The notes under the pieces were generated by a model, which was given only the letters and a program-made list of their open reading frames with translations, was not told where the DNA came from and searched no databases. Shown here piece by piece: positions 2,161 to 20,947 of a DNA stretch of 64,000 bases. How positions within the stretch are numbered: the first letter of the stretch is position 1; every line of letters begins with the position of its first letter. The translations under genes and the position numbers were made by a program. The DNA is from an uncultured Bacillota bacterium (GTDB lineage: Bacteria; Bacillota; DTU025; MWDF01). The stretch covers positions 320,001 to 384,000 of the forward strand of contig CAWGMK010000010.1 of the NCBI GenBank assembly GCA_963823655.1. The letters are read 5' to 3'.

Positions 2161-2185
2161 ATTCGTCGGAACGTAATTAAAACCT
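2161..2185 (-). promoter_or_regulatory. Sigma-H-like promoter for def-racemase-AI-2E
   Basis: Minus strand AGGT-N17-GAAT (aaaaggttttaattacgttccgacgaatt), matching the AGGA-N17-GAAT sigma-H architecture. Confidence 0.55.
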
Positions 2186-2303
2186 TTTCCGCATTCCTAA
2201 CAAAAGGGCTTATATACTCATAATATAGTAAAATCCTGCCATCAGTGAAGTAGGCTTTGACTGGGGCTTAGAATGCATAGAGGTAATTGAATAGTAGCAG
2301 TTA

Positions 2304-2321
2304 AAGTGATACAATTCACAA
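2304..2321. promoter_or_regulatory. Candidate Rex operator
   Basis: AAGTGAT-ACAA-TTCACAA versus consensus TTGTGAA-N4-TTCACAA (one perfect half-site), about 40 nt upstream of an FMN-binding protein gene. Confidence 0.5.
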
Positions 2322-2359
2322 TAAATGCGACCAATAATCCAATATAAGGAGGAGAAAAA

Positions 2360-3411: not shown

Positions 3412-3429
3412 CTGTATTAGCTTGACTCT

Positions 3430-3459
3430 AGCCAGCGCCCCAAAGGCGCTGGCTTTTTT
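3430..3459 (+). terminator. Intrinsic terminator
   Basis: agccagcgcc-ccaaa-ggcgctggct followed by a T run. Confidence 0.85.
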
Positions 3460-3729
3460 ATTTCATGCTGTGATTAATGGGACAATGTGAATATAGTTGC
3501 ATGCGCATGGCTCAAGCCGAAAATGGGCATGGAACATAAGTTGTGCTGCGATGCGTCTTAGTAGTGAAATGAGGGACGAACCGAACTGAACAGATAACAT
3601 TGTGAAGTAAATATTTAAGTACTAAAACTGATACAATGTAATGCGTGCTAGATTATTTATGAGTATAAATGTATGTGATAAAATGAACTACGTAAATGAC
3701 CTAAAACCTATTTATTGGGAGGAAAGACA

Positions 3730-4758: not shown

Positions 4759-4865
4759 CCAAGCCCGGACAATAAGGCAGTACAGGGCCTCCTGAAAAGG
4801 GGGCCCTTTGCATGAGCTGTTGCTAAGAAGGCTTCCAACGCTTAATATTGCTAAAGGTGATGATG

Positions 4866-5969: not shown

Positions 5970-5992
5970 TGCAAAGGGATTAGAAACGATCG

Positions 5993-6030
5993 GGTCCGGC
6001 GGCATAACAACCGCCGGACCTTTCTTTTTC
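5993..6030 (+). terminator. Intrinsic terminator
   Basis: ggtccggcgg-cataacaa-ccgccggacc followed by tttctttttc. Confidence 0.85.
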
Positions 6031-6253
6031 TTTGACCCGCGCCCCCACGATAAGCCCTCTCTGATGATTCCTGCTCGCGTAAAGCCCAATTATGAGGGAC
6101 TTCCGCTCGTGCCAAAAAACGGAAAATTTTAATGTCATTAAAAACATAATGGCAGACTGATTATCGCTATGCGACTTTGCATAGCCTTATACTGGAAATC
6201 ATATGCGCCGCTTAGTGCGATTATGGATAAATGTCTATCTGTGATATTTGCTA

Positions 6254-6282
6254 TTGTAAGTTGAATGAGATTCAAATATTAT
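6254..6282 (+). promoter_or_regulatory. Sigma-A-type promoter with a palindromic operator in the spacer
   Basis: TTGTAA-N17-TATTAT; the spacer holds TTGAAT-GAG-ATTCAA (6261-6275). Confidence 0.55.
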
Positions 6283-6330
6283 GTCATTAGAGTTATATCC
6301 GCCTCTGTTCTTTCGACGAAGGAGGATGCC

Positions 6331-6940
6331 ATGCTCGACAAGTACGGTTACATAGGCGAGCGCATCCGCAAGGAGCGCACGAAATACGACTTGAGCCTCT
6401 CTGAGCTAGCAAAAGAGATCGGAGTCTCCGTCTCCCTGCTGAGCCTTGTGGAGAACGGCAAGGCGACGCCCTCCATGACTGTGCTCGACAAGATCTGCTC
6501 ATTTTTCTCAATCCATATGGCATCGCTCTTCGAGGAGGAGACCGGTAACCCGAAAGTGGTGCTGCTCAAAAAGGACAAGCAATTCGAAGTGAAAATAGAC
6601 GAAGCCAGGGCAAGGAGATTCCTCCTGCCTAGAACAGGCGTGCCCATTGAGCCCGTCCTTGTGACCATAGATCCCGGTGCGCCCTATATCGACTTTTCCG
6701 TCCATAAGGGAGTCGAATATGGCTATGTCCTGGAGGGCGCAATAACGGTGGAAGTGGAAGGCGGCGAATCCGTTACGTGCGGCGAAGGGAGATTCCATAT
6801 TCTACAAGGCATCTCAGCCCCACAGGCTGCTGAACCTGTCCACCGAGAAGGCGGTCGGCCTTTGGATGGGAGTGCCCGATGTCAACGACACCGCCGGGCA
6901 TACGGCTTTTTCCGAGGAAGGCAAGAAGGCCAGGCGGTAA
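6331..6940 (+). CDS. XRE-family HTH plus cupin transcriptional regulator; frameshift near 6789
   Basis: RIRKER..LSLSELAKEIGVSVSLLSLVENGKATPS and HKGVEYGYVLEG; corrected frame continues GDSIFYKASQPHRLLN to TAA at 6940. Confidence 0.88.
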
Positions 6941-6959
6941 TATTTTCGGAGGTGTGGCA

Positions 6960-7958
6960 ATGAAGAAGATAATCAACAAGCCCGAAATGGCAGTACCCGA
7001 GATGCTGCAGGGAATGATGAAAGCGCACCCGGGGATAGTCGATGTGCTCCCCGGAACCCAGGCAGTAGTAAGGTGCGACGCGCCCGTTAAGGGCAAAGTG
7101 GCGCTGCTCACAGGCGGCGGAAGCGGACATGAGCCTGCCCACGGAGGCTTCGTCGGCAAGGGATTGCTTGATGCGGCGCTCGCCGGCGCGGTGTTCTGCT
7201 CACCTCCTCTAGATGACGGCATCGCCGCGCTTGAGCGCATCAACGGCGGCGAAGGCGCGCTCTTCATAATCAAGAATTATACCGGCGACATACTTCTCTT
7301 CGACATGCTCGAGGAGGAGGCATCCGACCGCGGCATAAAAGTCAAGAAAGTGCTGGTAAAAGACGACGTGGCTGTGGACAAGCGGGAGGGAACGACGGGA
7401 AGGCGCGGCGTCGCCGGTACCGTGTTCGTGCATAAGATAGCCGGAGCTAAGGCGGCATCTGGCGCTAAGCTCGACGATGTGTACCGCACAGCCGTAAAAG
7501 TCACCGAGAACATGAGGACCATGGGCATGGCTACAAGCCCCTGCCTGGTGCCCGGACGCGACAAGACCAACTTCGAGCTGGGTGAGGGCGAGATGGAAAT
7601 CGGAATCGGCATACACGGCGAGCCCGGCGTAAGGCGCGAGAAGCTGGCAACGGCTGCTTCCATTACATCGGAGCTGCTCGATCGCATAGTGGCTGACCTT
7701 CCATACAAGTCCGGGGACGAAGTCGCGGTCATGGTCAACGGTATGGGCGCAACGCCTCTCATGGAGCTGTACATAATCTTCAACGAGGCAGAGAAATACC
7801 TGGCAGCCAGGGGAATTAAGATTGTGCGCAGCTATGTGGGCGAGTACATGACATCGCTTGAGATGGGCGGCTTCTCCATAACGCTGCTTAAGCTTGATTC
7901 TGAGCTGCTGCCGCTGCTCGACGCCCCCTGCAAAGCCGCAGGTTTGGTGCAGGCATAG
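6960..7958 (+). CDS. dhaK: Dihydroxyacetone kinase substrate-binding subunit, divergent copy 1
   Basis: GGGSGHEPAH, KNYTGD, RRGVAG, GIHGEPG and TSLEMGG motifs. Confidence 0.92.
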   Translation: MKKIINKPEMAVPEMLQGMMKAHPGIVDVLPGTQAVVRCDAPVKGKVALLTGGGSGHEPAHGGFVGKGLLDAALAGAVFCSPPLDDGIAALERINGGEGALFIIKNYTGDILLFDMLEEEASDRGIKVKKVLVKDDVAVDKREGTTGRRGVAGTVFVHKIAGAKAASGAKLDDVYRTAVKVTENMRTMGMATSPCLVPGRDKTNFELGEGEMEIGIGIHGEPGVRREKLATAASITSELLDRIVADLPYKSGDEVAVMVNGMGATPLMELYIIFNEAEKYLAARGIKIVRSYVGEYMTSLEMGGFSITLLKLDSELLPLLDAPCKAAGLVQA

Positions 7959-7985
7959 ATATCGAAATCTTAGGAGGTCCGGGGC

Positions 7986-8613
7986 ATGTCGATCGAAAGA
8001 GCTGATGTTCTAAAGGCGTTCGCGGCTATGATAGACGCCGTAGATAAAAACAAATCCCTGCTCAACGAGCTGGATTCCACAATAGGCGACGCCGAGCACG
8101 GGATGAACCTGAAAAGGGGCTTCGGCATAATCGCAGATAAGCTGGAAGGGCTTTAGGAGCTTGAGCCCGCGATGATCATAAAGAAGGCGGGGACAGCGCT
8201 GGCAGGCGCCGGATGCGGATCAGGCCCCATATTCTACGGCCTTAGGCATTAGGGCCGCGGGCGATGCCCTCATCAAGAACGGCGGGGCCGGGCCCATGGA
8301 AGTCTCCGAGGCACTAACTGCCGCGCTCGACGTCATAAAGGAGAAGGGTGGGGCGAGCGTCGGCCAGAAGACGATGGTTGACGCAATAGAACCGGCAGCC
8401 CTTGCTTTCAGGAAAGCCGCAGATGCGGGGCTCGACATGAGATCGTGCTTCGATGCCGCAGTTGATGCCGCCAAGGTTGGCATGGAAGCGACGGCGAAGA
8501 TGGTCGGCATGAAGGGCAGAGGCTTCCATGCAGGCGAGCGCGGCCTGGACCATCAGGATCCGGGCGCCACATCGGCTTACATGCTTCTTAAGAGCATAAG
8601 GGACATAATCTAA
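7986..8613 (+). CDS. dhaL: Dihydroxyacetone kinase ADP-binding subunit, copy 1; in-frame TAG at 8154 and frameshift near 8244 (error or pseudogene)
   Basis: LNELDSTIGDAEHGMNLKRGF...KTMVDAI...GRGFHAGERGLDHQDPGATS. Confidence 0.85.
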
Positions 8614-8678
8614 CACAGGTATTTCCATGGGGGACCCATGTGGAATATAGGCAAATCGAAAAAGTAGGAGGCAATAAT

Positions 8679-9797
8679 ATGAAGAGAACAATTCTAACCC
8701 TTGTTGTAATCGCCTTAGTAGCAAGCCTCGCGGCGATAGGCAATGCGGCCACAGTCATAAGAATCGGACTTTCTGCGCCGATAACCGGCAACTATGCCGA
8801 GTACGGCCAGAACTTCGAAGTCTCCGTAAGGATGGCAGTGGATGAGATCAACGCCAAGGGCGGCATCCGCGGCATGAAAGTCGAAGTAGTAGTCATGGAC
8901 TCAAAGAGCGACCCGAAAGAGGCCGCCCTCATAGCGCAGAAATTCGTCGACGATCCTACCATAGTAGCCGAAATCGGCGACTTCAGCAGCACAGCATGCC
9001 TGGCAGCAGCCCCGATCTATGAGCGCGCAGGCATGGTACAGCTATCACCCACAGCATCCAGCCCGCTGTTCGCGCCGTCAGGCGAGTACATGTTCGGCAT
9101 AGTAGGCACTCAGACCGACGAGGGCCCGTTCAACGCGAAGAACATCGCGCAGGACTATCTCGGTCTTAAGACGGTAGCCACCCTCTACATAAACAATGAC
9201 TGGGGCAAAGTGACCAACTCCACATTCGTAGAAGCAGCGAAGAAGATCAACCTCAACGTAGTAACCGAGCAGTTCTTCATGGACTCAGAGAAGGATTTCA
9301 CAGCAGTGCTCACCAAGATCCGCCAGCTGAACCCTGACGGAATATTCTTGGCAGCCATGTACAATGAGGCCTCAGCCATAGCCCGCCAGATCCAGAAGAT
9401 GGGCTGGAAGGTAAAGCTGTCGGCTCCCAGCTCGGTATTCTCAAGCCAGCTCATAGCGCTCGGCGGCGACGCCGTCGAAGGCCTGGTAACCAACACGTTC
9501 TTCGTACTTACCGATCCCAACCCCGTCGTCCAGAAGTACATCAAGGACTTCGAAGCAAGGGCCAAGAGATACCCCAACCTCCACGCCGCCTGCGCATATG
9601 ACGCAGCATACCTGTTGGCCGCAGCAATCGAGAAGGGTGGCCTCGATCGCAAGGCAATCAGGGATGTCCTGGCAGTGACCAAGGGCTTCAAAGGCGTCAC
9701 CGGAGAGATAACCTTCACAGCAGTTGGTGACGTCGTCCGTTCGTACAAGATACTTGCCGTCGAAAAGGGCGAGTGGGTAATCAAGAAGGACAACTAA
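8679..9797 (+). CDS. Liv/HAAT-family ABC transporter substrate-binding protein
   Basis: IRIGLSAPITG, AVDEINAKGGI and AYDAAYLL motifs; signal peptide without a lipobox. Confidence 0.92.
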   Translation: MKRTILTLVVIALVASLAAIGNAATVIRIGLSAPITGNYAEYGQNFEVSVRMAVDEINAKGGIRGMKVEVVVMDSKSDPKEAALIAQKFVDDPTIVAEIGDFSSTACLAAAPIYERAGMVQLSPTASSPLFAPSGEYMFGIVGTQTDEGPFNAKNIAQDYLGLKTVATLYINNDWGKVTNSTFVEAAKKINLNVVTEQFFMDSEKDFTAVLTKIRQLNPDGIFLAAMYNEASAIARQIQKMGWKVKLSAPSSVFSSQLIALGGDAVEGLVTNTFFVLTDPNPVVQKYIKDFEARAKRYPNLHAACAYDAAYLLAAAIEKGGLDRKAIRDVLAVTKGFKGVTGEITFTAVGDVVRSYKILAVEKGEWVIKKDN

Positions 9798-9876
9798 CAT
9801 CGATCTCGCCCAAATCCTGCGGGCAGCAGCGATCCTGCGCCCGCAGGATTCCTAATTGCAAGAAGGCGGTGAGCCA

Positions 9877-10749
9877 ATGTTCTTCCTGCAGCAACTTGTA
9901 AACGGCCTTGCCCAGGGCTCGATCTATTCCCTAATGGCAATAGGCCTCGCGATGATAATCGGTGTAGTCGGGCTGGTCAGCTTCGTAAACGGCGAAGTCA
10001 TCATGGTGGGGGCGGTTGCGTCCTACCTTGCGATCACCTACATAACCCCCAACCCGGTACTTGCTTTGCTTATGGGCATGCTGGCCTCGGCGGTCATGGG
10101 AGTGGCAGTCGAGTACATCTGCTACAGGCCTTTCAGAAGGTCGAAGACCAATAACGCGCTCATTGCGACCATCGGGCTTTCGATATTCGCAAAGAGCCTC
10201 ATGCAGGTAATATTCGGCACAGAGCAGAAGTTCATGCCGGACCTGCTGGGAACGAATGTGATAATTATCGGGGATCTGAGGATAAGCTACGTCCAGGTGA
10301 TGATAATAGCGATTGTCGTCGGCCTGAGCGTGCTTCTCCAGCTCATCCTCTACAGGACCAGGACGGGGGTAGCCCTGAGGGCCGTGTCGATGGACAAGAC
10401 GGCCGCGGCGCTTCTTGGCGTTAACGTGGACCGGACGGTCCTCATAGGTAACGCCATAGGCTGTGCGCTAGGAGGGGTATCCGGAGTCTTGATCGGCATA
10501 TACTACAATTCCGTGTACGCGCTACTGGGCGCAAGCGTGGCCATGAAGGCGTTCGCAGCCGTCGTATTCGGAGGGCTCACCAGCATACCGGGGGCCGCTC
10601 TTGGCGGGCTTGTGCTGGGAGTAGTAGAGAATATGGCCGTTACGATATTCTCATCTGGCTATAAGGATATCGTAGCGTTCATAGTGATCATCATAGTGCT
10701 AGTCATCAGGCCTTCGGGCATCCTGGGACGCAAAGGGGTGAGCATCTGA
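9877..10749 (+). CDS. livH: Liv-type ABC permease (LivH-like)
   Basis: QQLVNGLAQGSIYSLMAIG and KAFAAVVFGGLTSIPGA. Confidence 0.9.
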   Translation: MFFLQQLVNGLAQGSIYSLMAIGLAMIIGVVGLVSFVNGEVIMVGAVASYLAITYITPNPVLALLMGMLASAVMGVAVEYICYRPFRRSKTNNALIATIGLSIFAKSLMQVIFGTEQKFMPDLLGTNVIIIGDLRISYVQVMIIAIVVGLSVLLQLILYRTRTGVALRAVSMDKTAAALLGVNVDRTVLIGNAIGCALGGVSGVLIGIYYNSVYALLGASVAMKAFAAVVFGGLTSIPGAALGGLVLGVVENMAVTIFSSGYKDIVAFIVIIIVLVIRPSGILGRKGVSI

Positions 10750-10750
10750 C

Positions 10751-11731
10751 ATGAAGAGGACGAAGCTCATCTACATCGGCCTTCTGCTTGCGGCCTTGAT
10801 TCTTATCGGGGCCTTCCCGAAGTTCGCCGGGTCCAATTACATACTTAGAGTCGCAATACTGTCGATGATAAATGTGGCGCTTGTCGGCAGCCTGAACCTG
10901 GTAAACGGCTATATCGGCCAGTTCAACCTGAGCCATGTGGGCTTCTACTGCGTCGGCGCCTACACCGCAGCCATACTCTCTACCAGGTACAACTACAGCT
11001 TCTGGCTTCTGCTTCCCCTATCGGGGCTTATGGCGGCGGCAGTCAGTATGATATTGGGCGTGCCCACTTTAAGGCTCAAGGGCATATTCTTCACGATAAC
11101 GACGCTCGGCTTCTCCGAGATAATCAGGATGACGGTGCTCAACTGGGAGTCGCTCACCCGCGGGACCATGGGAATACCCGGAATACCGTTCCCGGTGCTC
11201 TTCGGCATGAAACTCAAAAGCAACGCCCAGTTCTACTGGATAATATTCGGGATAGTGATAGTGCTTTATATCAGCAATTATCTGCTCATGAACTCGAGGA
11301 TCGGCAGGGCGTGGATCGCCATCAGGGAGGACGAAGGTGCTGCCCGCTCCATGGGGGTCGAAACCTACAAGTACAAGCTGATGAACCTCGCGATTAGCGC
11401 CTTCTGGGCAGGCGTGGTCGGCTGCTTCTACTCCTTCTTCAGCGCCTACGTCAGCGCCGACAGCTTCAAGCTTGACGAGAGCTTCTCTATGGTCGCTATG
11501 CTCCTAGTCGGCGGCCAGGGCACGATGCTTGGCCCCGCGATAGGGGCTATAGTGCTTACCGTGCTGCCCGAGGTCTTCAGGAGCCTGGTTGAATACAGGC
11601 TCGTCATATTCGGAGCTGCGATAGTCCTGATGATACTGCTAAGGCCCCAGGGCATAGTCGGGGGGCTAAGGCTTGCAAACTTCCAGCTTCCTGTCACAAA
11701 AGTCGGCAGGGTAAGGAAGGGGGCGGCGTGA
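10751..11731 (+). CDS. livM: Liv-type ABC permease (LivM-like)
   Basis: SLNLVNGYIGQFNLSH and SRIGRAWIAIREDE. Confidence 0.9.
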   Translation: MKRTKLIYIGLLLAALILIGAFPKFAGSNYILRVAILSMINVALVGSLNLVNGYIGQFNLSHVGFYCVGAYTAAILSTRYNYSFWLLLPLSGLMAAAVSMILGVPTLRLKGIFFTITTLGFSEIIRMTVLNWESLTRGTMGIPGIPFPVLFGMKLKSNAQFYWIIFGIVIVLYISNYLLMNSRIGRAWIAIREDEGAARSMGVETYKYKLMNLAISAFWAGVVGCFYSFFSAYVSADSFKLDESFSMVAMLLVGGQGTMLGPAIGAIVLTVLPEVFRSLVEYRLVIFGAAIVLMILLRPQGIVGGLRLANFQLPVTKVGRVRKGAA

Positions 11732-12543
11732 TGGAGCATCAGGGAAAGGTAATACTTGAGGCAAAGGGCCTGTGCCGCTTCTTCGGCGGGCTAAAAGCCG
11801 TTAACAATGTGGATGTCAAAGTGGAAGAGGGCATGATCCACGGGATAATCGGGCCCAACGGCGCGGGCAAGACCACTTTCTTCAACGTCCTCACCGGCAC
11901 TTACCCCGCATCCGCCGGGGAAGTCCTGTATCTGGGCGATAAAATCACAAACAAAGCCCCGGAGCATATAACCCGGCTTGGCATAGCCAGGACGTTCCAG
12001 AACATCAAGCTCTTCAAGAACATGACCGTCCTGGAGAATGTGAAGATAGGCTTCCACGTCCATACGGGAACCGGGCTTGCAGACGCGCTGCTTCGCACCC
12101 CCAAATGCAGAAGGGATGAGAAGTTCGCAACCGAGAAGGGCCTCGAGATCCTGAAAAGGGTAGGGCTTGACGCCCACGCGGACGACATTGCCACGAGCCT
12201 CCCCTACGGCGACCAGCGCAGGCTCGAGATAGCAAGGGCCCTTGCGACGGCGCCGAAGCTTCTCCTCTTGGACGAGCCGGCTGCGGGTATGAACCCCATG
12301 GAGACGGCACGCCTTATGGATTTCATCAGGCAGCTAAAGGGCGAGGGCTTAACTATAGTAGTCATCGAGCACGACATGAAGCTCATCATGAATATCTGCG
12401 ACAGGATAACCGTAATCAGCTACGGCGAGAAGATCGCCGAGGGCACGGCCGCCGAAATCCAGTCGAATCCCGCTGTAATAGAGGCGTATCTGGGCAAACG
12501 CGGCAATCTCAGGGCGAGGAAGGGGGCCGTCAAGGATGCTTAA
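11731..12543 (+). CDS. livG: Liv-type ABC ATPase (LivG-like)
   Basis: GPNGAGKTT, ARTFQNI, LPYGDQRRLEIARALA and DEPAAG. Confidence 0.92.
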   Translation: MEHQGKVILEAKGLCRFFGGLKAVNNVDVKVEEGMIHGIIGPNGAGKTTFFNVLTGTYPASAGEVLYLGDKITNKAPEHITRLGIARTFQNIKLFKNMTVLENVKIGFHVHTGTGLADALLRTPKCRRDEKFATEKGLEILKRVGLDAHADDIATSLPYGDQRRLEIARALATAPKLLLLDEPAAGMNPMETARLMDFIRQLKGEGLTIVVIEHDMKLIMNICDRITVISYGEKIAEGTAAEIQSNPAVIEAYLGKRGNLRARKGAVKDA

Positions 12544-13246
12544 AGTAGAGGCCCTCAAGGTAAGATACGGGGCGATCGAAGCGGTCAAAGGCGTTGACAT
12601 ACAAGTTAACGACGGCGAGATAGTGACGCTCATCGGATCAAACGGCGCCGGCAAAAGCAGCACCCTGATGGCTATTTCGAACCTCGTAAGAAAGACCGGC
12701 AAAGTAAGCTTCGACGATACTGACATAAGCGCGCTGGAGCCGAGCCTGATAGTTAAGAAGGGCATCTGCCACGTGCCTGAAGGACGCCATATATTCCCCT
12801 TCCTGACGGTCGAGGAGAACCTTGTGATGGGGGATTTCGGCAACACCGATGGATCCAAGGACAGGGTCAAGGACAACATGGACCATGTCTTCGAACTCTT
12901 CCCCCGGCTTAAGGAAAGGCGCCGCCAGAACGGCGGAACGCTCTCGGGCGGCGAGCAGCAGATGCTTGCAATCGGCAGAGGGCTTATGATGAACCCGAAG
13001 CTCATGATGCTCGACGAGCCCTCCCTTGGGCTGGCTCCCATGCTCGTCGACCAGATATTCGAGCTGATTTTGAAGATTAGGGACCACGGGAAGACGATAC
13101 TTCTCATTGAGCAGAATGCTAACATGGCTCTCCAGATTGCTGACAGGGCATATGTTATGGAGACCGGCGTGATAAGCATGAGCGGGCCCGCTGAAGAGCT
13201 GGCCGGCGACGAGAGAGTAATCAAGGCATACCTGGGCATCAATTAA
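12536..13246 (+). CDS. livF: Liv-type ABC ATPase (LivF-like)
   Basis: GSNGAGKSS, VPEGR, LSGGEQQMLAIGR and DEPSLGLAP. Confidence 0.92.
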   Translation: MLKVEALKVRYGAIEAVKGVDIQVNDGEIVTLIGSNGAGKSSTLMAISNLVRKTGKVSFDDTDISALEPSLIVKKGICHVPEGRHIFPFLTVEENLVMGDFGNTDGSKDRVKDNMDHVFELFPRLKERRRQNGGTLSGGEQQMLAIGRGLMMNPKLMMLDEPSLGLAPMLVDQIFELILKIRDHGKTILLIEQNANMALQIADRAYVMETGVISMSGPAEELAGDERVIKAYLGIN

Positions 13247-13263
13247 CGAAAGGCGGTAAATTA

Positions 13264-13758
13264 ATGAGCATCAACAACGTAGCCAAGACCAAGGCGGACG
13301 AGAAGACACTTGATCTTAGAAACGCTTTCGAACACAGGGCGACATGGTTCTATTACCTTCTTGACGAGGCGGAGAAGGCGGGAGCAGACTGGGAGAAGAT
13401 CGGGCGCAACGCAATTTTCCGCTGCGGCTGCTTCCACGGCGACAACAAGTTTACGCCGACATCCGATCTAAAGAAGTTCGCAGGCGAGTTCGCCAACGAG
13501 AACGTGAAGAAGGTATTCGAGATGGACATCAAGGAGATGTCCGACGACAGGTTCTACGTAGAGTTCAACTTCTGCCCGCTAGTGGCGGGCTGGCTCAAGC
13601 AGACCAATGACGAGAAGAAGATCGAGACCCTCTGCGACATCGCCATGGACGGCGACCGCGGCATCATCAACGAGTTCCCGGGCTTCGAGTTCAAGCTGGG
13701 CGACACGATAGCCAAAGGCGGCAAGGTTTGCTGCGTAGAGGTAATAAAGAACAAGTAG
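13264..13758 (+). CDS. L-2-amino-thiazoline-4-carboxylic acid hydrolase family (ATC_hydrolase) protein
   Basis: 164 aa with the pattern CPLVAGW...LCDIAMDGD...TIAKGGKVC typical of this family. Confidence 0.75.
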   Translation: MSINNVAKTKADEKTLDLRNAFEHRATWFYYLLDEAEKAGADWEKIGRNAIFRCGCFHGDNKFTPTSDLKKFAGEFANENVKKVFEMDIKEMSDDRFYVEFNFCPLVAGWLKQTNDEKKIETLCDIAMDGDRGIINEFPGFEFKLGDTIAKGGKVCCVEVIKNK

Positions 13759-13764
13759 GAGTGC

Positions 13765-15054
13765 TTGATGATAACAGTAAGGGAGTATCTTAAGAGGGAA
13801 ATGATGCCCTCTTTAGGCTGCACCGAGCCCGTCGCCGTGGCGCTTGCCGCGGCGCGGGCCTATAAGGCGCTTGAAGGGCGGCCGATCGACCGCATAGAGG
13901 TCGACATCAGTGACAGCATCTACAAAAACGGGATGGGAGTCGGAGTGCCGGGAGCAAACGGCAGGACCGGAAACGGCCTTGCAGCAGTGTTGGGGGCAAT
14001 TGCCGGCGACTCGTCGCTGGATATGCAAGTACTAAGGGATGTAAACGACGACGACGTCGAAAGGGCCCTGCAGATTCTTGCCGAGGGCAGGATGCAGCTC
14101 AACTGCCTTGAGGACGTGCACGGAGTTTACATACTCGTGAAGATAAAAGCAGCAGGCCACACAGCCGAGTGCAGGATCGAAGGGGAGCACAACAATATCG
14201 TATCGGTGAAGCTGGACGGAGTACAGATGCAGGAGAGGAAACAGCCCTTGCCCGGTAAGGCCGCTGAGGCTGACCCATTCCTGGAAGTGGAGTTCGAACA
14301 GCTTCTAGAGCTTGCAGACTGCCTTGAGCCCGAGGACATAGACGCTATCATGGATGGCGTGGAGATGAACCGCAAGATCGCTGCATACGGCCTTTCCGGA
14401 GGCCCGATGTCGGGGTTGGGCGTTGGTTCGGTCTTCAAGGATTTCTTCGAGCACACCCACCTCAACGAGGACCTTCTGTTTAGAATCCGGGCTGCCTGCA
14501 GCGCGGGCTCAGATGCCAGGATGGCAGGTTGCCCTTTGCCGGTCATGACGGTAGCAGGGAGCGGAAACCAGGGGATTACCTCCATGCTTTCGGTTGCCAT
14601 GCTGGCGGAATACTACGGCAAGAGCCGTGAAGAGATAGCGAAAGCCGTGATGGTCAGCATGCTGACGACAAGCTATGTAAGAAGCGTCATAGGCAGGGTG
14701 ACACCCATGTGCGGTTGCGTTGTAGGCGCAGGTTCGGGAGCCGCAGCCGGAATGACATATTTACTCAACGGCTCGATTGACCAGATAAAGCTATCGATGC
14801 AGACGATGATGTCCAATTTGGCCGGCATAGTTTGCGACGGGGCGAAGGGCACCTGCGCGCTTCGGGTAGGGACCGCCGTTACCGAGGCCTACCTTTCAGC
14901 TCTCATGGCCTGGCACTACAAAGGCGCGAGCAACGTGGAGGGCATCGCCGGAGTGACAATGGAACAGACAGCCCATAATGTTTCCATGCTCAACAAAGAG
15001 GGCATGAAAGAGATGGACAGGCTGATAATAGACATTATGGAGGAAGGCAAGTAG
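13765..15054 (+). CDS. cyuA: UPF0597/YhaM (CyuA) Fe-S L-cysteine desulfidase-like protein
   Basis: LGCTEPVAVALA, SDARMAG, GSGNQG, MCGC and CDGAKGTCA motifs. Confidence 0.85.
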   Translation: MMITVREYLKREMMPSLGCTEPVAVALAAARAYKALEGRPIDRIEVDISDSIYKNGMGVGVPGANGRTGNGLAAVLGAIAGDSSLDMQVLRDVNDDDVERALQILAEGRMQLNCLEDVHGVYILVKIKAAGHTAECRIEGEHNNIVSVKLDGVQMQERKQPLPGKAAEADPFLEVEFEQLLELADCLEPEDIDAIMDGVEMNRKIAAYGLSGGPMSGLGVGSVFKDFFEHTHLNEDLLFRIRAACSAGSDARMAGCPLPVMTVAGSGNQGITSMLSVAMLAEYYGKSREEIAKAVMVSMLTTSYVRSVIGRVTPMCGCVVGAGSGAAAGMTYLLNGSIDQIKLSMQTMMSNLAGIVCDGAKGTCALRVGTAVTEAYLSALMAWHYKGASNVEGIAGVTMEQTAHNVSMLNKEGMKEMDRLIIDIMEEGK

Positions 15055-15081
15055 ATTGCCGCCCTCACCGGAGGACCGGAC

Positions 15082-16077
15082 ATGAAGAAGATAATCGACA
15101 GCCCGGAAAGAATAGTGGATACAATGCTCAACGGCATCGCCTTCTCTCACTCAGGGAAGGTAGCAAGGCTTGAGGGCTTCAACGTAATAGTCAGGAAGAA
15201 TCATAACGACAACAAAGTATCCCTTATAAGCGGCGGAGGATCCGGGCATGAGCCCGCGCACGCGGGCTTCGTAGGCCGCGGAATGCTGGATGCCGCAGTG
15301 GCAGGCGAGGTATTCACCTCTCCCACGCCGGACCAGGTGTTGGCTGCTTTAAAGGCAGTGGCCAGCTCAAAAGGCTCGCTACTGATCATCAAGAACTACT
15401 CGGGAGACGTAATGAACTTCGAGATGGCCGCAGAGATTGCAGAGATGGAAGGGCTCAAAGTGGCCAAAGTCATTGTAAATGACGATGTGGCCGTGATGAA
15501 CAGCACTTATACGACAGGCAGGCGCGGCATAGCGGGAACAGTGTTCGTCCATAAGGTGGCGGGGGCCAAAGCGGAGCTCGGAGGAAGCCTGGAGGAAGTA
15601 GCCGCGGTAGCCTGCAAAGTAATTGCAAACACCAGGAGCAAGGGCTGTGCGCTTGCTCCGTGCATAGTGCCCGCGGTGGGAAGGCCTACATTCACCCTTG
15701 CTGAAGACGAGATGGAAATAGGCCTTGGCATCCACGGGGAGCCGGGCGTAAAGCGTGTCTCCATGATGAGCGCAGAACAGATAGCCCAGGATCTTGCAGG
15801 CTCCTGCGCCGACGACCTAAAGCTTACAGACGGCGAATCGGTGGCGGTCCTGATAAACGGGCTCGGATCGACGCCCCTTATGGAGCTCTATATTCTTGCC
15901 GCCAGGGTTGGCGATTACCTCAAAGCAATTGGAGTTAGCGCCCCAAGGGTTTACGTCAAGGAGTTCATGACATCGCTTGAGATGGCAGGCGCCTCCGTAA
16001 GCCTGATGAGGCTGGATGATGAGATATTATGCCTTCTGGACAAGCCCTGCGATACGCCCGCCTGGACGCAGTTCTAG
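15082..16077 (+). CDS. dhaK: Dihydroxyacetone kinase substrate-binding subunit, canonical copy 2
   Basis: GGGSGHEPAH, GEVFTSPTPDQ, KNYSGDVMNF and GIHGEPG. Confidence 0.95.
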   Translation: MKKIIDSPERIVDTMLNGIAFSHSGKVARLEGFNVIVRKNHNDNKVSLISGGGSGHEPAHAGFVGRGMLDAAVAGEVFTSPTPDQVLAALKAVASSKGSLLIIKNYSGDVMNFEMAAEIAEMEGLKVAKVIVNDDVAVMNSTYTTGRRGIAGTVFVHKVAGAKAELGGSLEEVAAVACKVIANTRSKGCALAPCIVPAVGRPTFTLAEDEMEIGLGIHGEPGVKRVSMMSAEQIAQDLAGSCADDLKLTDGESVAVLINGLGSTPLMELYILAARVGDYLKAIGVSAPRVYVKEFMTSLEMAGASVSLMRLDDEILCLLDKPCDTPAWTQF

Positions 16078-16090
16078 GCAGGTGGATAGG

Positions 16091-16732
16091 ATGCAGATTA
16101 CTTCCAAAGACCTAATAAAGATGCTTGAGGCGATGCGCCAAACCATCGCCGGGCACAAAGATTACCTTACGGAGCTAGACGCTGCGATCGGAGACGCGGA
16201 CCACGGGATAAACATGGACAGGGGGTTCGCAGCCGTCGTGGCCAAGCTAGTGACCCTCGAGGGCGCATGCTGCGGCACTGTGCTCAAGACGGCCGGGATG
16301 ACTTTGCTTTCCACTGTAGGCGGGGCGTCCGGGCCATTGTACGGCACGGCATTCATGTATGCGGGCAACGCTGTCATGGGAAAGTACGAGCTCGGAGCCG
16401 AGGATGCGGCAAAGGCGGTCGACGCTGCAGTCCAGGGCGTCATGAAAAGAGGCTCTGCCGTGGCGGGCGATAAGACTATGGTGGACACGCTGCTTCCGGT
16501 CTCGCAGTATATGGGCAGCGAGGAGTATCTAAAGGCAGATAGCTTCGATGCGATGCAGAAGGTGCTTATGATCGCTGAAGACGGCATGAACTCGACGGGA
16601 GGGCTTACTGCAAAGCGCGGCAGGGCGAGCTTTCTAGGAGAGCGCAGCGCAGGGCACCTGGATCCGGGCGCCGTTTCCAGCTACCTTCTTATAGGCGCCG
16701 CAGTGCGCCTTCTGGGCGGTGATCGCTTTTGA
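16091..16732 (+). CDS. dhaL: Dihydroxyacetone kinase ADP-binding subunit, copy 2
   Basis: LDAAIGDADHG, VGGASGPLYG, GDKTMVD and GRASFLGERSAGHLDPGA. Confidence 0.95.
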   Translation: MQITSKDLIKMLEAMRQTIAGHKDYLTELDAAIGDADHGINMDRGFAAVVAKLVTLEGACCGTVLKTAGMTLLSTVGGASGPLYGTAFMYAGNAVMGKYELGAEDAAKAVDAAVQGVMKRGSAVAGDKTMVDTLLPVSQYMGSEEYLKADSFDAMQKVLMIAEDGMNSTGGLTAKRGRASFLGERSAGHLDPGAVSSYLLIGAAVRLLGGDRF

Positions 16733-17121
16733 TCGGCATACTGATAGTGTCCCACAGCAGGAAAGTCGCCGAAGGCGCAAGGGAAATGGCCCTTGCGATG
16801 ACCGGAGGGGAAGTTGAGATAATCGCCGCCGGCGGAACGGCAGACGGTGGGCTTGGCACGGATTACGAGGCGATTTTCAATGGCATGAGCAAGCTTGCCG
16901 CATGTGGCGGGGGAGCAGTCCTCATGGACCTCGGAAGCGCTGTAATGAGCGTGCAGGCGGCGCTTGAGCAGTTGGGGGACGACCGAGACAAGATCGTTCT
17001 ACTGGATGCCCCATTGGTTGAAGGGGCCGTCGTAGTGGCCGTACAGGCATCGCTTGGCAGCGGCTTAGCGGAGCTTAAAGAAGTAGCCCAAGGGGCTTGG
17101 GGAATGCGCAAGCTAATTTAA
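16729..17121 (+). CDS. dhaM: PTS-dependent DHA kinase phosphotransfer subunit (EIIA-Man-like)
   Basis: IVSHS, AAGGT, MDLGSAVMS and APLVEGA. Confidence 0.93.
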   Translation: MIGILIVSHSRKVAEGAREMALAMTGGEVEIIAAGGTADGGLGTDYEAIFNGMSKLAACGGGAVLMDLGSAVMSVQAALEQLGDDRDKIVLLDAPLVEGAVVVAVQASLGSGLAELKEVAQGAWGMRKLI

Positions 17122-17133
17122 GGAGGGCCCGTT

Positions 17134-17397
17134 TTGCTGGAGAAAACCGTAGTAGTAGGCGGCAAGGAGGGCCTTCACGCAAGGCCTGCGGCTGCTTTTG
17201 TCAAGGCGGCATCGAAGTTCAAATGCAAGGTCTCCTTGAACCATAAGGGCAGAAGCATAAACGCCAAGAGCACTATAGACATGATGATGTCTGCAGCATC
17301 CGAGGGGGATCTGATCATCATCCGAACTGACGGCGAGGACGAAGAAGCCGCCATGGGCAGCCTGTCCATTCTTATCGAAGGAAAGGCCGGTCAATAG
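17134..17397 (+). CDS. ptsH: Phosphocarrier HPr
   Basis: GLHARPAA (His15) and NAKS (Ser46). Confidence 0.93.
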   Translation: MLEKTVVVGGKEGLHARPAAAFVKAASKFKCKVSLNHKGRSINAKSTIDMMMSAASEGDLIIIRTDGEDEEAAMGSLSILIEGKAGQ

Positions 17398-17399
17398 CC

Positions 17400-19109
17400 A
17401 TGAAGCTTTCGGGCATCCCGTCATCTCCGGGCATAGCTGGGGGGATAATTCGCAGGATGGAAGCGGCCGGCGCGAGGGGGCTGGCAGCGGACTTTGCGAG
17501 CTCGCAGCCTTTGAGCTGGGATGAAGCTGTAGACGCAGCCAAGGGAGTGCTTGAACAGGCGCGAAAGAAAGCGCTTGATTCTGTAGGCGCCGAGGCTGCG
17601 GCAATCTTCGAAGCCCAGATGATGATAGCGGAGGATCCGAGCCTGAAAGATGCCGCAATGGAGCTTTCCGGCGGCAAGCCGGGGGCGAAGGCTGCGATCG
17701 ATGCCGCGGAATCCCTGGCGAAGATGTTCGACGCGATTGAAGATGAGTACATTAGGGCGAGGGGGGCCGACATACGCCATGTCGGCGCGCTAATAGCCAA
17801 GGCCTTTTCGGGAGAGGGCGAAGACAAGCAGGAGGCCAAAGACGGCGCTATATCCTCTTCTAGCGGCTCCAAGGGCATGGTAATTGCAGCATACGATCTG
17901 TCGCCTTCAGAGACAGTCTTCCTGGATGAGAAAAGCGTATCCGGCATCGCTCTTGAGGGCGGGACCGTTAATTCCCATGTATCGATTCTGGCGCAGGCTA
18001 TGGGCATACCGTGCGTAGTCGGCATAAAAGGTTTAATGCAAGCAGCGGTCCAAGGAGATGCCTGCTTTCTTGACGCGGTTGAAGGCTTTTTCCTTACCGG
18101 ACCTGACATCCCGGCAGGAAGCCAGAGCAGCACCCGTCCCGCAGGAGATGTGGCGCAATTTACTAAACATCTCGTTAGCAAGGATGGGTACAACATAGGC
18201 CTTGCCCTTAACATCGGGAACATTGAGGAGCTCAGGAAACTGGCGAGAATTGACCTGTTAAACACCAATATCGGGCTTATGAGGACCGAATTCATCTTCA
18301 TGGGCGCAAAGCAGCTTCCTGGCTACAAGGCGCAAAGCATCATTTACAAGCAGATCATGGAGGCTGCACATTTCGGAATGGTCAGATTCAGGACCTTGGA
18401 CATTGGCGGGGATAAAAAGCCTTCGTTTGTGGAGTTCGCCCATGAGGATAACCCTTACCTCGGTCTCAGGTCCATAAGGCATTCGCTTAAGAATGAAGCC
18501 ATGTTCAAAGAGCAGTTGAAAGCGCTTGTAGAGGCAAGCGAGGGGCATGCCATTGAAGTGATGTTCCCGATGGTGAGCACCATTGAGGAGCTGAGGCGCG
18601 CAAAGGGCCTTCTTGCGGATGCGATAGCCGAAAACGGCAAGGCTAATAGATTTTCGGTCAGCTCGGGCATCATGCTGGAAGTCCCCTCGGCCTGCATTAT
18701 GGCCGACGCCTTCGCAAAAGAGTGCGACTTCCTCAGCATCGGCACGAACGACCTTGTGCAGTACACCATGGCCACTGACAGAGGCAATCCTGAAGTTTCA
18801 GAGCTTTACCAGCAGTTCAACCCTGCGATTTTCAGATTGATCAACTCCTGCGTACTCGCATGCGAAGTGGCGGGGAAGGAGCTTTCTGTCTGCGGGGAGC
18901 TTGCCGGAAGCCCTGAAGGCGCCGTCATACTTGCAGGCCTGGGCGTAAAGAAGCTCAGCATGTCGCCAAGGAACACCATGCGAGTGGCCAAGGCCCTTTC
19001 GCGATTTAGCGTGCATGAGATGCGTATGCTGGCGATGGAAGTGCTTAACGCCTCTTCGCAGCAGGAAGTTCTGGACATGACGGAAGAGATCAGGGCTGGA
19101 GTGAAATAG
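17400..19109 (+). CDS. ptsI: PEP-protein phosphotransferase (Enzyme I)
   Basis: GGTVNSH, GLMRTEF, RTLDIGGDK, SIGTNDLVQY and CGELAG. Confidence 0.95.
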   Translation: MKLSGIPSSPGIAGGIIRRMEAAGARGLAADFASSQPLSWDEAVDAAKGVLEQARKKALDSVGAEAAAIFEAQMMIAEDPSLKDAAMELSGGKPGAKAAIDAAESLAKMFDAIEDEYIRARGADIRHVGALIAKAFSGEGEDKQEAKDGAISSSSGSKGMVIAAYDLSPSETVFLDEKSVSGIALEGGTVNSHVSILAQAMGIPCVVGIKGLMQAAVQGDACFLDAVEGFFLTGPDIPAGSQSSTRPAGDVAQFTKHLVSKDGYNIGLALNIGNIEELRKLARIDLLNTNIGLMRTEFIFMGAKQLPGYKAQSIIYKQIMEAAHFGMVRFRTLDIGGDKKPSFVEFAHEDNPYLGLRSIRHSLKNEAMFKEQLKALVEASEGHAIEVMFPMVSTIEELRRAKGLLADAIAENGKANRFSVSSGIMLEVPSACIMADAFAKECDFLSIGTNDLVQYTMATDRGNPEVSELYQQFNPAIFRLINSCVLACEVAGKELSVCGELAGSPEGAVILAGLGVKKLSMSPRNTMRVAKALSRFSVHEMRMLAMEVLNASSQQEVLDMTEEIRAGVK

Positions 19110-19180
19110 CCGGTTCGGATCTGCCCGAAAAGCTTATGCAGAAAAAATAAAGTACTAAAAAATATACGAGCATATGCAGC

Positions 19181-19216
19181 AGAAAGGAGCTTCCCGCAAG
19201 GGGGGCTCCTTTCTTT
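19181..19216 (+). terminator. Intrinsic terminator closing the dha/liv operon
   Basis: agaaaggagcttccc-gcaa-ggggggctcctttct followed by tt. Confidence 0.8.
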
Positions 19217-19279
19217 CGGGTGTATAATATTCATGGTCGGGGGCGTCAGCCTCCGGCGAAAACAAGAGGAGGGGAATAC

Positions 19280-20947
19280 ATGAAAAAGAGCTTCTTTTCA
19301 GGCATGATGGCAGTAATGCTAATTGCCGCCTTCGCAATAGGCGCAATGGCATGCACATCAATTCCCGTATCCAAGGGCGCATCGGCCGGCGGCTACGTGA
19401 TGACCACATGGACAGATGACTCGGGCACCGATAACATGAGAATAAACGTCGTACCGGCTAAGGACTGGCCGGCAGGTTCGATGAGGACCGTCCTTAGAAA
19501 CACAGACTACGGTCAGTTCGCACAGATTGCAACCCCGATATTCTCACCTGGTGAGATGCCACAGGTTCCCCATACCTACCAGTATATCAACGCATCTTAC
19601 TCCTTCATGAACGAGAACGGAGTGGGCATGGGCGAAACCACAATAGGCGGAGAATCAAGGATGAGGAACAGCAAGGGCTGGTTCGACATCGTCGAGCTGC
19701 AAAGGATTGCGCTTGAGCGCTCCAAGACAGCACGCGAGGCCGTCATGATCATGGGTTCTCTCGCTGAGAAGTACGGCTACGGAATCGGCGGCGAATGCCT
19801 TACGGTAGTCGACAAGGACGAAGTATGGCAGTTCGAAGTCTTCGGACCCGGCCCCCTGTGGGAGTACGGCTCCGGCGAGCCCGGCGCAGTCTGGGCAGCA
19901 GCAAGGATACCCGAAGGCTACGTCGGCGTATCGGCCAACAGGAGCAGGATCGGCGAGGTCAACCCCGCCGACACAGCGAATTACCTCTGCTCCGCGCACA
20001 TTTTCTCTCTCGCAGAGTCGATGGGCCTCTGGGATCCTAAGTCCGGCAAGCCCTTCAAAGTGTTCGAGACCTACGGCAAGAAGGCCTATTCACCTTACAA
20101 CGCGCGCCGCGAGTGGAGGGTATTCAGCCTCCTGGCGCCTTCCATGAAACTAGATCCGTGGCTTGAGCAGTACCCGTTCGCAATCAAGCCCGACAAGCCG
20201 GTCACACCGCAGATGCTCATGGCCATCTGCCGCGACCACTATGAAGGCACAGAGTTCGACCTCACCACTGGGCTCCAGGCAGGCGCATTCGGCACCCCCG
20301 ACAGGTGGCCTACCCCTTCCAGCTCCAACCCCAAGAACAGCGTAGGCTGGGAGCGCGCGATATCCATGTTCAGAACCAATTTCTCTGTCGTATTCCAGAT
20401 GAGGGCCGACATGCCGGCAGCAATCGGCGGCCTGGTATGGTTCGGTTATGACAAGCCCGGCACAACATGCTATATCCCGATCTACGCCGGTGCCAAGTCC
20501 CTGCCCGAATCGTTTGCGAAGGGCATGAGAGGCGCCAATTACGACGTATTCAGCCGCGAATCGGCATGGTGGGCGTTCAACTTCGTCTCCAACTACGCCA
20601 ACCTGAAATACAACGTAATGATAAACGACATCAAGGCCGTCAGCGGCCCGTTCGAGGACGAGTTCTTCAAGCTTCAACCCTACATAGAGAAGGCAGCAAC
20701 CGACCTCTATGCCAAGGACCCTGAGCTTGCGAAGGAGTTCATAACCCAGTACACCAACTCTGCGGCCAACAAAGTCGTAGCCGCCTACTGGAAACTGGCA
20801 TCCACGCTGGCCGGCAGGTACACAGACGGATACACCTACGGCTATGGCGACGGCAAGCTGGTACAGAACGGCTACCCGAAGGAGTGGCTGGATGCAGTGG
20901 GCTTCGGAATCAGCACAATAAAGCCCGAGCTCAGGACCACGAAGTAA
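19280..20947 (+). CDS. Exported C69-family dipeptidase (Ntn hydrolase)
   Basis: Signal peptide ending AMA then CTSI (N-terminal Cys nucleophile); MNENGVGMGETT, SANRSRI and RDHYEGTEFDLT. Confidence 0.9.
   Translation: MKKSFFSGMMAVMLIAAFAIGAMACTSIPVSKGASAGGYVMTTWTDDSGTDNMRINVVPAKDWPAGSMRTVLRNTDYGQFAQIATPIFSPGEMPQVPHTYQYINASYSFMNENGVGMGETTIGGESRMRNSKGWFDIVELQRIALERSKTAREAVMIMGSLAEKYGYGIGGECLTVVDKDEVWQFEVFGPGPLWEYGSGEPGAVWAAARIPEGYVGVSANRSRIGEVNPADTANYLCSAHIFSLAESMGLWDPKSGKPFKVFETYGKKAYSPYNARREWRVFSLLAPSMKLDPWLEQYPFAIKPDKPVTPQMLMAICRDHYEGTEFDLTTGLQAGAFGTPDRWPTPSSSNPKNSVGWERAISMFRTNFSVVFQMRADMPAAIGGLVWFGYDKPGTTCYIPIYAGAKSLPESFAKGMRGANYDVFSRESAWWAFNFVSNYANLKYNVMINDIKAVSGPFEDEFFKLQPYIEKAATDLYAKDPELAKEFITQYTNSAANKVVAAYWKLASTLAGRYTDGYTYGYGDGKLVQNGYPKEWLDAVGFGISTIKPELRTTK

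Follow-up and report, generated by a model that had tools for sequence, protein, structure and literature searches.

Several described systems come close to parts of the locus reported here. Dihydroxyacetone kinases driven by the phosphoenolpyruvate (PEP)-dependent phosphotransferase system (PTS) are encoded in dhaKLM operons, and L-cysteine desulfidases of the CyuA type are found in Escherichia coli (cyuPA) and in archaea. In Pseudomonas, AtcB, the founding member of Pfam family PF14196, acts in the pathway from 2-amino-thiazoline-4-carboxylate (ATC) through N-carbamoyl-cysteine to cysteine. We analyzed a 64,000-nucleotide window (the whole stretch of DNA under study) from an uncultured Bacillota bacterium (GenBank assembly GCA_963823655.1, contig CAWGMK010000010.1, positions 320,001 to 384,000). 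At positions 6331 to 19109 of this window, 15 genes on the + strand encode a regulator, two DhaK/DhaL pairs, a Liv-type ATP-binding cassette (ABC) importer, a PF14196 protein (hereafter the ATC-like protein), a CyuA homologue, DhaM, HPr and Enzyme I.

The cluster is a real conserved module of known enzymes, found in several phyla and in many anaerobic bacteria, and the ATC-like protein is its hub. From the gene content we propose that its genes would be transcribed as a single unit and would serve to take up and degrade a small amino-acid-like compound of L-cysteine and a C3 carbonyl (dihydroxyacetone or glyceraldehyde), most likely an adduct of the thiazolidine-4-carboxylate type, an assignment to which we give somewhat less than an even chance.

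Conservation of the gene cluster

The open reading frames (ORFs) of the window were listed, and their proteins were scanned against the Pfam and NCBIfam families. All 15 genes of the original prediction were recovered, co-oriented on the + strand and with the predicted coordinates and families, but the regulator and dhaL1 turned out to be disrupted. The genes are as follows.

6331-6940 if the frame were undisrupted (the ORF as it stands ends at 6963), + strand: XRE (HTH_3) and Cupin_2 regulator; Pfam HTH_3 1.5e-12
6960-7958, + strand: dhaK1, intact; Dak1 2.5e-126, TIGR02363 427.5 bits against a cut-off of 406.25
7986-8613, + strand: dhaL1, broken; Dak2 match in two pieces
8679-9797, + strand: substrate-binding protein of the Liv/HAAT family; Peripla_BP_6 1.5e-60
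9874-10749, + strand: livH-like permease; BPD_transp_2 (2.8e-40 and 8e-48 for the livH/livM pair)
10751-11731, + strand: livM-like permease; BPD_transp_2 (values given for the pair above)
11728-12543, + strand: livG-like ATPase; ABC_tran and BCA_ABC_TP_C, best NCBIfam match LivG, below its cut-off
12536-13246, + strand: livF-like ATPase; ABC_tran and BCA_ABC_TP_C, best NCBIfam match LivF, below its cut-off
13264-13758, + strand: PF14196 ATC-hydrolase-like gene, 164 residues; 55.4 bits against a gathering score of 28.1, profile positions 2-141 of 145
13765-15054, + strand: homologue of the CyuA-family [4Fe-4S] L-cysteine desulfidase, 429 residues; SDH_alpha 3e-51
15082-16077, + strand: dhaK2; Dak1 6.8e-127, TIGR02363 461.5 bits against 406.25
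16091-16732, + strand: dhaL2; Dak2 1.1e-48, TIGR02365 222.4 bits against 138.3
16729-17121, + strand: dhaM with a single EIIA-Man domain; EIIA-man 2e-23, TIGR02364 113.2 bits against 98.25
17134-17397, + strand: HPr; PTS-HPr 1.6e-26, TIGR01003 89.6 against 47.9
17400-19109, + strand: PTS Enzyme I; three PEP-utilizer domains, TIGR01417 411.9 bits against 341.7

Recurrence in other genomes had been set beforehand as one test of the prediction, and the combination clearly recurs in the same genus, in another family and in other phyla. When the ATC-like protein was searched against 41 related genomes, that of the window among them, seven gave a match (again counting the window's own), and regions were fetched from six of these. 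The full 15-gene order is syntenic in three genomes of the same genus (G002, G004 and G006) and in one of another family (G007). A further genome, G010, has the order sigma-54 activator, binding protein, livHMGF, CyuA-like gene, ATC-like gene and aldehyde:ferredoxin oxidoreductase, with no Dak genes. The order in G003 is iron-dependent alcohol dehydrogenase (Fe-ADH), YheO-type regulator, livHMGF, two ATC-like genes, a pyridoxal phosphate (PLP)-dependent Cys_Met_Meta_PP lyase, binding protein, DhaK and DhaL.

For a wider scan, an alignment of the ATC-like subfamily was run against one genome per prokaryote species. It returned 451 encoding loci. The 80 best of these were analyzed, and a partner was counted when tblastn with proteins of the window detected it as a co-directional gene; a well-flanked subset was made up of the 44 loci whose flanks reach 8 kb or more upstream and 3 kb or more downstream. 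HAAT permeases accompany the ATC-like gene in 52 of the 80 loci (34 of the 44 well-flanked ones) and the binding protein does so in 50. Dak1 was counted in 35 loci (24 well-flanked), Dak2 in 36 and a CyuA-like gene in 34 (31 well-flanked). Permease, Dak1 and CyuA occur jointly in 25 loci, 24 of them in the well-flanked subset. All three are absent from 23 loci, many of which lie on short contigs.

Two gene orders recur among these loci. The first, that of the window, runs regulator, dhaK1, dhaL1, binding protein, livHMGF, the ATC-like gene, an optional cyuA, dhaK2, dhaL2, dhaM and hpr, with Enzyme I next in some. The second runs cyuA, binding protein, livHMGF, dhaK and dhaL, and a DhaR-like regulator (GAF-AAA+-HTH_8) adjoins the ATC-like gene; clusters with this regulator are present in 20 loci. 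In a quick maximum-likelihood tree of 81 ATC-like proteins, the triple context is found on both halves, in loci labelled Bacillota, Atribacterota, Chloroflexota and Bacteroidota. The importer occurs with Dak genes in Synergistota and with CyuA in Spirochaetota and Thermodesulfobacteriota, and the partnerless loci form clades of their own (one of NC10, the other a Clostridium/Eubacterium group whose loci carry polar amino-acid ABC systems). Among the carriers are gut and digester Clostridia that have been cultured (Anaerotruncus colihominis, Marasmitruncus massiliensis, Lachnotalea glycerini and Anaerocolumna aminovalerica), so the hypothesis is directly testable.

The partners of the ATC-like gene vary between lineages. 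It occurs with CyuA and no Dak gene in loci such as L076, L088 and L092 and in the Spirochaete type, and with Dak and no CyuA in the Synergistaceae type and at L061. Such separate pairings are expected if the ATC-like reaction gives one product for each branch. On the cysteine side, other enzymes replace CyuA or accompany it: the PLP lyase stands in for it in G003, and a Cys_Met_Meta_PP-like gene was found by tblastn in the fetched flanks, on either strand, of six of the 80 loci; Aminotran_5 (class-V aminotransferase/desulfurase type) and RidA are further alternatives, in three and five loci. On the carbonyl side, an FGGY kinase takes the place of Dak in seven loci, and in G010 the aldehyde:ferredoxin oxidoreductase lies directly downstream of the ATC-like gene. 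In NC10 the ATC-like gene adjoins a TAL/FSA-type aldolase (seven loci) and an MGS-like gene (three loci), which is triose chemistry. These substitutions lend indirect support to a substrate that combines a cysteine moiety with a small carbonyl moiety. The oxidoreductase of G010 and a pyrroline-5-carboxylate (P5C) reductase, which would have been a link to thioproline, were set aside as supports because each was found at one locus.

Several variants are recorded here for completeness. The G003 cluster (L018, positions 85-11152) is a paralogous cluster in a same-genus genome, its two ATC-like genes stand in tandem, and a gamma-glutamyltranspeptidase and an AstE/AspA-like deacylase are encoded nearby on the opposite strand. 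The NC10/Methylomirabilota loci (L024, L028, L030-L034 and L041) also carry a nitroreductase-ferredoxin fusion and an NMT1-like binding protein, and have no Liv, Dak or CyuA genes. The Spirochaete/Desulfosarcina version (L063; also L053, L062 and L080) has up to three ATC-like genes per cluster; L063 (2785-11425) encodes a binding protein, livHMGF, a URO-D-like protein, an FGGY kinase, an ATC-like protein, a shikimate-kinase-like protein, RidA, a CyuA-like protein, a second ATC-like protein and a LytB-like protein. The Clostridium/Eubacterium clade includes L048, L054, L039, L071 and L089. Three of these are annotated (L048, L054 and L071), with a TetR regulator (L048, L054), a polar amino-acid ABC system (SBP_bac_3) or a URO-D-like protein as context; L071 (Clostridium puniceum) has the P5C reductase and a second, longer PF14196 protein. 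The contexts of L069, L075, L095 and L097 contain no informative neighbours.

Proteins and signals of the cluster

The ATC-like gene is single-copy in this genome by tblastn. In the subfamily alignment C104, C124 and C156 are invariant, and C54 and H58 nearly so. The invariant charged residues are R19, E23/H24/R25 (in an EHRATW motif), E35, E86, D125, D131 and R132. Its AlphaFold (AF2) model has a pLDDT of 97, and a Foldseek search revealed similarity with Bet3/TRAPP subunits, H-NOX domains and the zinc-holding V4R domains of the phenol sensors MopR and PoxR (E 2e-4 to 1e-2, TM 0.45-0.6). The fold relationship and a three-cysteine cluster are noted for the family in the available excerpt of PMC5847659. 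A PDB sequence search gave no solved relative of the protein, and no NCBIfam model matches it. The modelled fold would suit a small-molecule-binding protein, or an enzyme on such a scaffold. No amidohydrolase family was found among the 15 genes, and the predicted absence of an N-carbamoyl-L-cysteine amidohydrolase partner thus holds. Because ATC yields no ketose and this partner is absent, the ATC-like protein cannot do the Pseudomonas job.

The CyuA-like gene is also single-copy by tblastn, and no NCBIfam model matches its product. The best solved match is the L-cysteine desulfidase of Methanococcus (PDB 9fsl; 2.4e-34, residues 3-426). For that enzyme (MmCyuA), the excerpt of the structure paper gives three cluster cysteines, Cys23 and Glu25 as essential and Arg223, Asn239 and Lys339 as active-site neighbours (PMC12647591). 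In an alignment to 9fsl every catalytic residue of the solved CyuA is present, in agreement with the predicted Fe-S desulfidase. C19, E21, R252, N268, C316, C357, K361 and C364 are kept throughout the 33 aligned sequences (32 locus proteins and the window's), apart from one E21 to D change. By sequence, the protein would belong to the CyuA family, and the conversion of cysteine to pyruvate, ammonia and H2S is assigned at the family level.

Both kinases carry the GGGSGHEPAH, KNYSGD and GIHGEPG motifs and are 52% identical to each other. His57, Asp110 and His219 of DhaK1 align with His56, Asp109 and His218 of E. coli DhaK (1uoe; 356-residue numbering), which we take to be the substrate-binding histidine and the acid/base residues. 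The best solved DhaK relative is that of Lactococcus lactis (3ct4), and DhaK1 scores 277.8 bits with the DhaQ model, under its cut-off of 413.25. DhaK, DhaL2 and DhaM all exceed their NCBIfam equivalog cut-offs, and the relay of DhaM, HPr and Enzyme I is complete. These three relay genes are single-copy by tblastn, and neither PTS_EIIC (PF02378) nor EII-Sor (PF03609) has a match in the 97%-complete genome, so the relay seems to serve only these kinases. The usual dha neighbours are missing as predicted: no glycerol dehydrogenase or MIP facilitator is encoded in the cluster or its flanks, and no MIP facilitator was matched anywhere in the genome. Because the genome has no MIP match and a single Fe-ADH, on another contig (C7), there is no evident way for it to make free dihydroxyacetone from glycerol. 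That Fe-ADH is 74.5% identical to the one heading the paralogous G003 cluster; its surroundings (G000 C7:247-9554) hold a further Liv-type system and an aldehyde:ferredoxin oxidoreductase but no ATC-like gene.

The importer consists of a binding protein, two permeases and two ATPases, for which the LivK/H/M/G/F models are the best matches, all under the equivalog cut-offs. The nearest solved structures to the binding protein are amino-acid-binding HAAT proteins, 3hut (1.3e-56), 3td9, Atu2422 and LivK. Its Trp175 lies at the position of LivK Tyr150 and its Ser251 at that of LivK Glu226, presumably the acidic residue that contacts the alpha-ammonium group of the ligand. Of 41 cluster-linked binding proteins, 39 have serine here, even those with an identity of only about 32%, and the signature S127, W175, Y228 and S251 is nearly fixed across the cluster-linked proteins at this level of overall identity. 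Judged from the alignment, serine in place of the acidic residue would suit a ligand with a ring secondary amine.

The regulator has the HTH_3 and Cupin_2 architecture, with the cupin frameshifted in this assembly, and scores 48.9 bits with the PuuR equivalog against a cut-off of 211. A DhaK1-type gene adjoins the regulator in all 12 loci with an XRE-cupin regulator, and 10 of the 80 loci have two Dak1 genes. By analogy with E. coli DhaR and L. lactis DhaQ/DhaS, DhaK1/DhaL1 may be the sensor pair of the XRE-cupin regulator: they always accompany this regulator, and single-pair clusters use the DhaR-like one. The two DhaK/DhaL pairs may instead reflect two trioses.

The signals around the cluster also agree with the original prediction, which had placed a promoter and operator at 6254-6282 and a terminator behind Enzyme I.

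6254-6282, + strand: sigma-70-like promoter TTGTAA-17-TATTAT, 9 of 12 matches, a score that by itself is no better than that of shuffles
6261-6275, + strand: candidate operator TTGAAT-N3-ATTCAA, a perfect inverted repeat between the -35 and -10 boxes
19182-19214, + strand: intrinsic terminator, a hairpin followed by UUUC, -32.6 kcal/mol

The promoter-like site lies within the most conserved block of the upstream region. Both operator half-sites are unchanged between the window and G002, G004 and G006, the three genomes of the same genus, while most of the remaining spacer has diverged; we infer that the XRE regulator binds this repeat. The terminator is strong by shuffle comparison (z = -6.2; none of 200 shuffles as stable). 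Within the cluster the spacing ranges from an overlap of 8 nt to 76 nt, and a site scan revealed no terminator-like site on the + strand. The tight packing is therefore as predicted, with neither an internal terminator nor a large gap to split the dha part from the liv/cyuA part. An Rfam scan of 5800-19500 found no riboswitch or leader.

The flanking genes, ApbE upstream and a C69 peptidase and phosphofructokinase downstream, are unrelated to the cluster. Nine or more paralogues of the C69 peptidase gene (19280-20947) were matched elsewhere in the genome, on contigs C6 and C12, with several standing in tandem at 286-295 kb of C6. Upstream, the 347-residue ORF at 3715-4758 has no Pfam match; its halves (residues 34-185 and 195-347) both align to one stretch of a relative's orthologue, which suggests an internal duplication.

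The disrupted genes contain three lesions. In dhaL1, an in-frame TAG at 8154-8156 replaces a codon that is lysine in all four relatives (G002, G004, G006 and G007), and a +1 insertion at about 8240 shifts the frame, so that the largest piece scores 81.5 bits with TIGR02365 against the cut-off of 138.3. Reading the TAG as pyrrolysine would not rescue dhaL1, since the frame is lost 85 nt further on in any case, and this explanation was set aside. In the regulator, a +1 insertion at about 6785 falls in the middle of the cupin, and the Cupin_2 match extends no further than position 45 of the 70 in the profile. Both insertions are assigned to the window because contigs about 94% identical to it, from four public metagenome runs of two studies, have exactly one base fewer at 6785 (or 6789) and at 8240. 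The regulator and dhaL1 frames are open in the orthologues of the same four relatives. The other 13 genes, dhaK1 and the 12 transport and catabolic genes, are intact. All three lesions (6785, 8154-8156 and 8240) are confined to the regulator-dhaK1-dhaL1 end, which may point to loss of a regulatory sub-module or to a locally poor stretch of assembly. No public sequencing run holding the window's own strain was found, the best sharing 0.17 of the sampled words and the sole RNA run 0.06. We therefore state the lesions for this assembly; they may be real mutations or assembly errors.

Proposed pathway and alternative explanations

The natural metabolites of an anaerobic protist include cysteine-aldehyde thiazolidines, which serve as a cysteine store there and are degraded in lysates by an activity that the available excerpt of PMC4222106 links to no enzyme. 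In the pathway that we propose, the Liv-type system would import such an adduct, and the ATC-like protein would open and hydrolyze it with water to cysteine and a triose. The CyuA homologue would then convert cysteine to pyruvate, ammonium and H2S. DhaK2/DhaL2, recharged from PEP through DhaM, HPr and Enzyme I, would convert the triose to a glycolytic triose phosphate; these last two reactions are family-level assignments. The XRE-cupin regulator would act at TTGAAT-N3-ATTCAA, possibly with DhaK1/DhaL1 as its triose sensor. Because the conserved core has no oxidoreductase, aldolase or amidase, a split into cysteine and a triose is the simplest scheme that gives each gene a job. The thiazolidine suggested in the original prediction is thus plausible. 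Its wider idea of a cysteine-ketose conjugate fared unevenly: the lineage substitutions support it indirectly, but S-glycerylcysteine, which it had also named, fits poorly, since the cluster has no conserved oxidoreductase.

A bolder and less probable version, which we regard as unlikely, is that the PF14196 protein would be an enzyme of a new kind, built on a V4R/Bet3/H-NOX-like scaffold that probably holds zinc, and would open cysteine-carbonyl thiazolidines by hydrolysis. Together with the importer, CyuA and the Dha kinases it would then form a widespread undescribed anaerobic scavenging pathway to H2S, pyruvate and triose phosphate, with DhaK1/DhaL1 as a kinase-derived sensor for an XRE-cupin repressor.

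Several points weigh against the adduct pathway. The scheme is built on family assignments, and the adduct, the transcript and the activity are all predicted from genes. Chemically, ketones form thiazolidines less favourably than aldehydes do. The ATC-like protein could bind rather than hydrolyze, since its modelled fold is that of ligand-binding domains, and the hydrolase label of PF14196 derives, we assume, from one characterized Pseudomonas enzyme. The binding-site contrast with paralogues is not clean, as only two of the seven Liv-type paralogues of the genome have Asp at the Glu226 position. The Synergistaceae versions of the cluster lack CyuA, nine of the 44 well-flanked loci are partnerless and lie in other contexts (polar amino-acid ABC, URO-D, NC10), and the counted loci are mutually related, so that the counts overstate independence. 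The aldehyde:ferredoxin oxidoreductase variant is a single locus, and P5C reductase was found next to the ATC-like gene at L071 only, other loci not having been searched systematically for it. Two of the 15 genes are disrupted in this genome.

Alternatively, the operon may simply join two ordinary functions: import of free cysteine (or a similar amino acid) with fermentation by CyuA, and a PTS kinase for free dihydroxyacetone, the PF14196 protein being a V4R-type accessory or sensor of the Dha system. We think this improbable, yet it has substance. The ATC-like fold is that of sensor and ligand-binding domains (PMC5847659, excerpt), the gene stands beside the DhaR-like GAF-AAA+ regulator in those 20 loci and with Dak alone at L027 and L055, and CyuA with a dedicated importer is a known cysteine-fermentation pair of E. 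coli (PMC9040844, excerpt). This explanation leaves unaccounted for the joint occurrence of cysteine import and desulfidation with Dha kinases in 25 of the 80 loci, across several phyla and two gene orders. The many invariant charged residues of the ATC-like protein would suit an active site for a polar substrate, and the genome, with no glycerol facilitator found and a single Fe-ADH, seems poorly equipped to make free dihydroxyacetone.

The comparative pattern applies equally to a different amino-acid-carbonyl conjugate, on which the ATC-like protein would act ahead of cleavage at a C-S or C-N bond, such as an S-substituted cysteine (S-glycerylcysteine from lipoproteins, for example), an Amadori-type N-(3-hydroxy-2-oxopropyl) amino acid or a thiazoline. 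PLP C-S lyases standing for CyuA in some lineages are consistent with this, two DhaK/DhaL pairs could handle two carbonyl products, and in Clostridium difficile a PF14196 protein, recognized by its locus number, lies beside a mannose-family PTS (PMC13435710, excerpt). Such a substrate is nevertheless doubtful to us. Turning S-glycerylcysteine into a DhaK substrate would need an oxidoreductase, and none is conserved in the cluster; in the solved CyuA the bound substrate is free cysteine, held on the Fe-S cluster by its thiol (PMC12647591, excerpt); and no deglycase-type (SIS) gene is present in the cluster. Still more remote, in our judgement, is metabolite repair, in which the ATC-like protein would free cysteine and trioses from spontaneous intracellular adducts and the importer would take up plain amino acids. 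Thiazolidines do form spontaneously in anaerobes (PMC4222106, excerpt), the ATC-like gene stands beside DhaKL(M) with no transporter genes at L027 and L055 (on contigs that are short or cut), and the FSA-type aldolase and MGS-like neighbours in NC10 would fit. Against repair, the transporter is linked in 52 of the 80 loci, and the near-fixed signature of the binding site argues for a specific imported ligand.

If the adduct pathway is correct, it would give the large uncharacterized branch of PF14196 its first physiological role and would name the enzyme behind the release of cysteine from thiazolidine adducts, which has been observed in lysates of an anaerobe and is not assigned in the available excerpt of PMC4222106. 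It would also add a microbial source of H2S that is independent of sulfate and of free cysteine. Even if the guess at the substrate is wrong, the conserved multi-phylum module of known enzymes stands.

Comparison with described systems

The literature searches turned up no description of a pathway with this composition, as the original prediction had supposed. No paper joining ATC hydrolase and dihydroxyacetone kinase was found, and the rare mentions of the PF14196 family that were found do not concern this cluster. Thiazolidine hydrolase, thiazoline hydrolase and thiazolidine-4-carboxylate dehydrogenase are unmentioned among the matches listed, and a search joining DhaK and thiazolidine gave irrelevant chemistry papers only.

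Compared with the PTS-dependent dhaKLM operons of E. coli (with DhaR) and L. lactis (with DhaQ/DhaS), the cluster has the same DhaK, DhaL and single-domain DhaM and the same phosphate supply from HPr and Enzyme I, and the second gene order shares a DhaR-like regulator. It differs in having two DhaK/DhaL pairs, an XRE-cupin regulator, the neighbouring Liv importer, CyuA and PF14196 genes, and no glycerol dehydrogenase or facilitator. With E. coli cyuPA and the archaeal CyuA (9fsl) it shares a full-length homologue with all cluster ligands and catalytic residues and an importer encoded alongside. However, this importer is a five-gene HAAT ABC system and not CyuP, the CyuA-like protein is distant from 9fsl (2.4e-34), and it is always linked here to a PF14196 protein.

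The likeness to the Pseudomonas L-ATC hydrolase AtcB lies in the Pfam gathering score, which is passed, in the three-cysteine cluster (PMC5847659, excerpt) and in cysteine as the proposed product. In contrast to AtcB, the ATC-like gene has no carbamoyl-amino-acid amidohydrolase beside it and is surrounded by a transporter, CyuA and Dha kinases. Its substrate must differ, since ATC yields no ketose. The oxidation of thioproline in E. coli by proline dehydrogenase and P5C reductase also releases cysteine from a cysteine-aldehyde thiazolidine (cited in PMC4222106, excerpt), and the P5C reductase and amino-acid ABC system at L071 recall it. That route is oxidative and has no PF14196 protein, whereas the cluster has no dehydrogenase and its ring opening would be hydrolytic. 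Taken by family, the kinds already known here are a Dha kinase operon and a cysteine desulfidase system; what appears to be new is their combination with a PF14196 hub and a HAAT importer.

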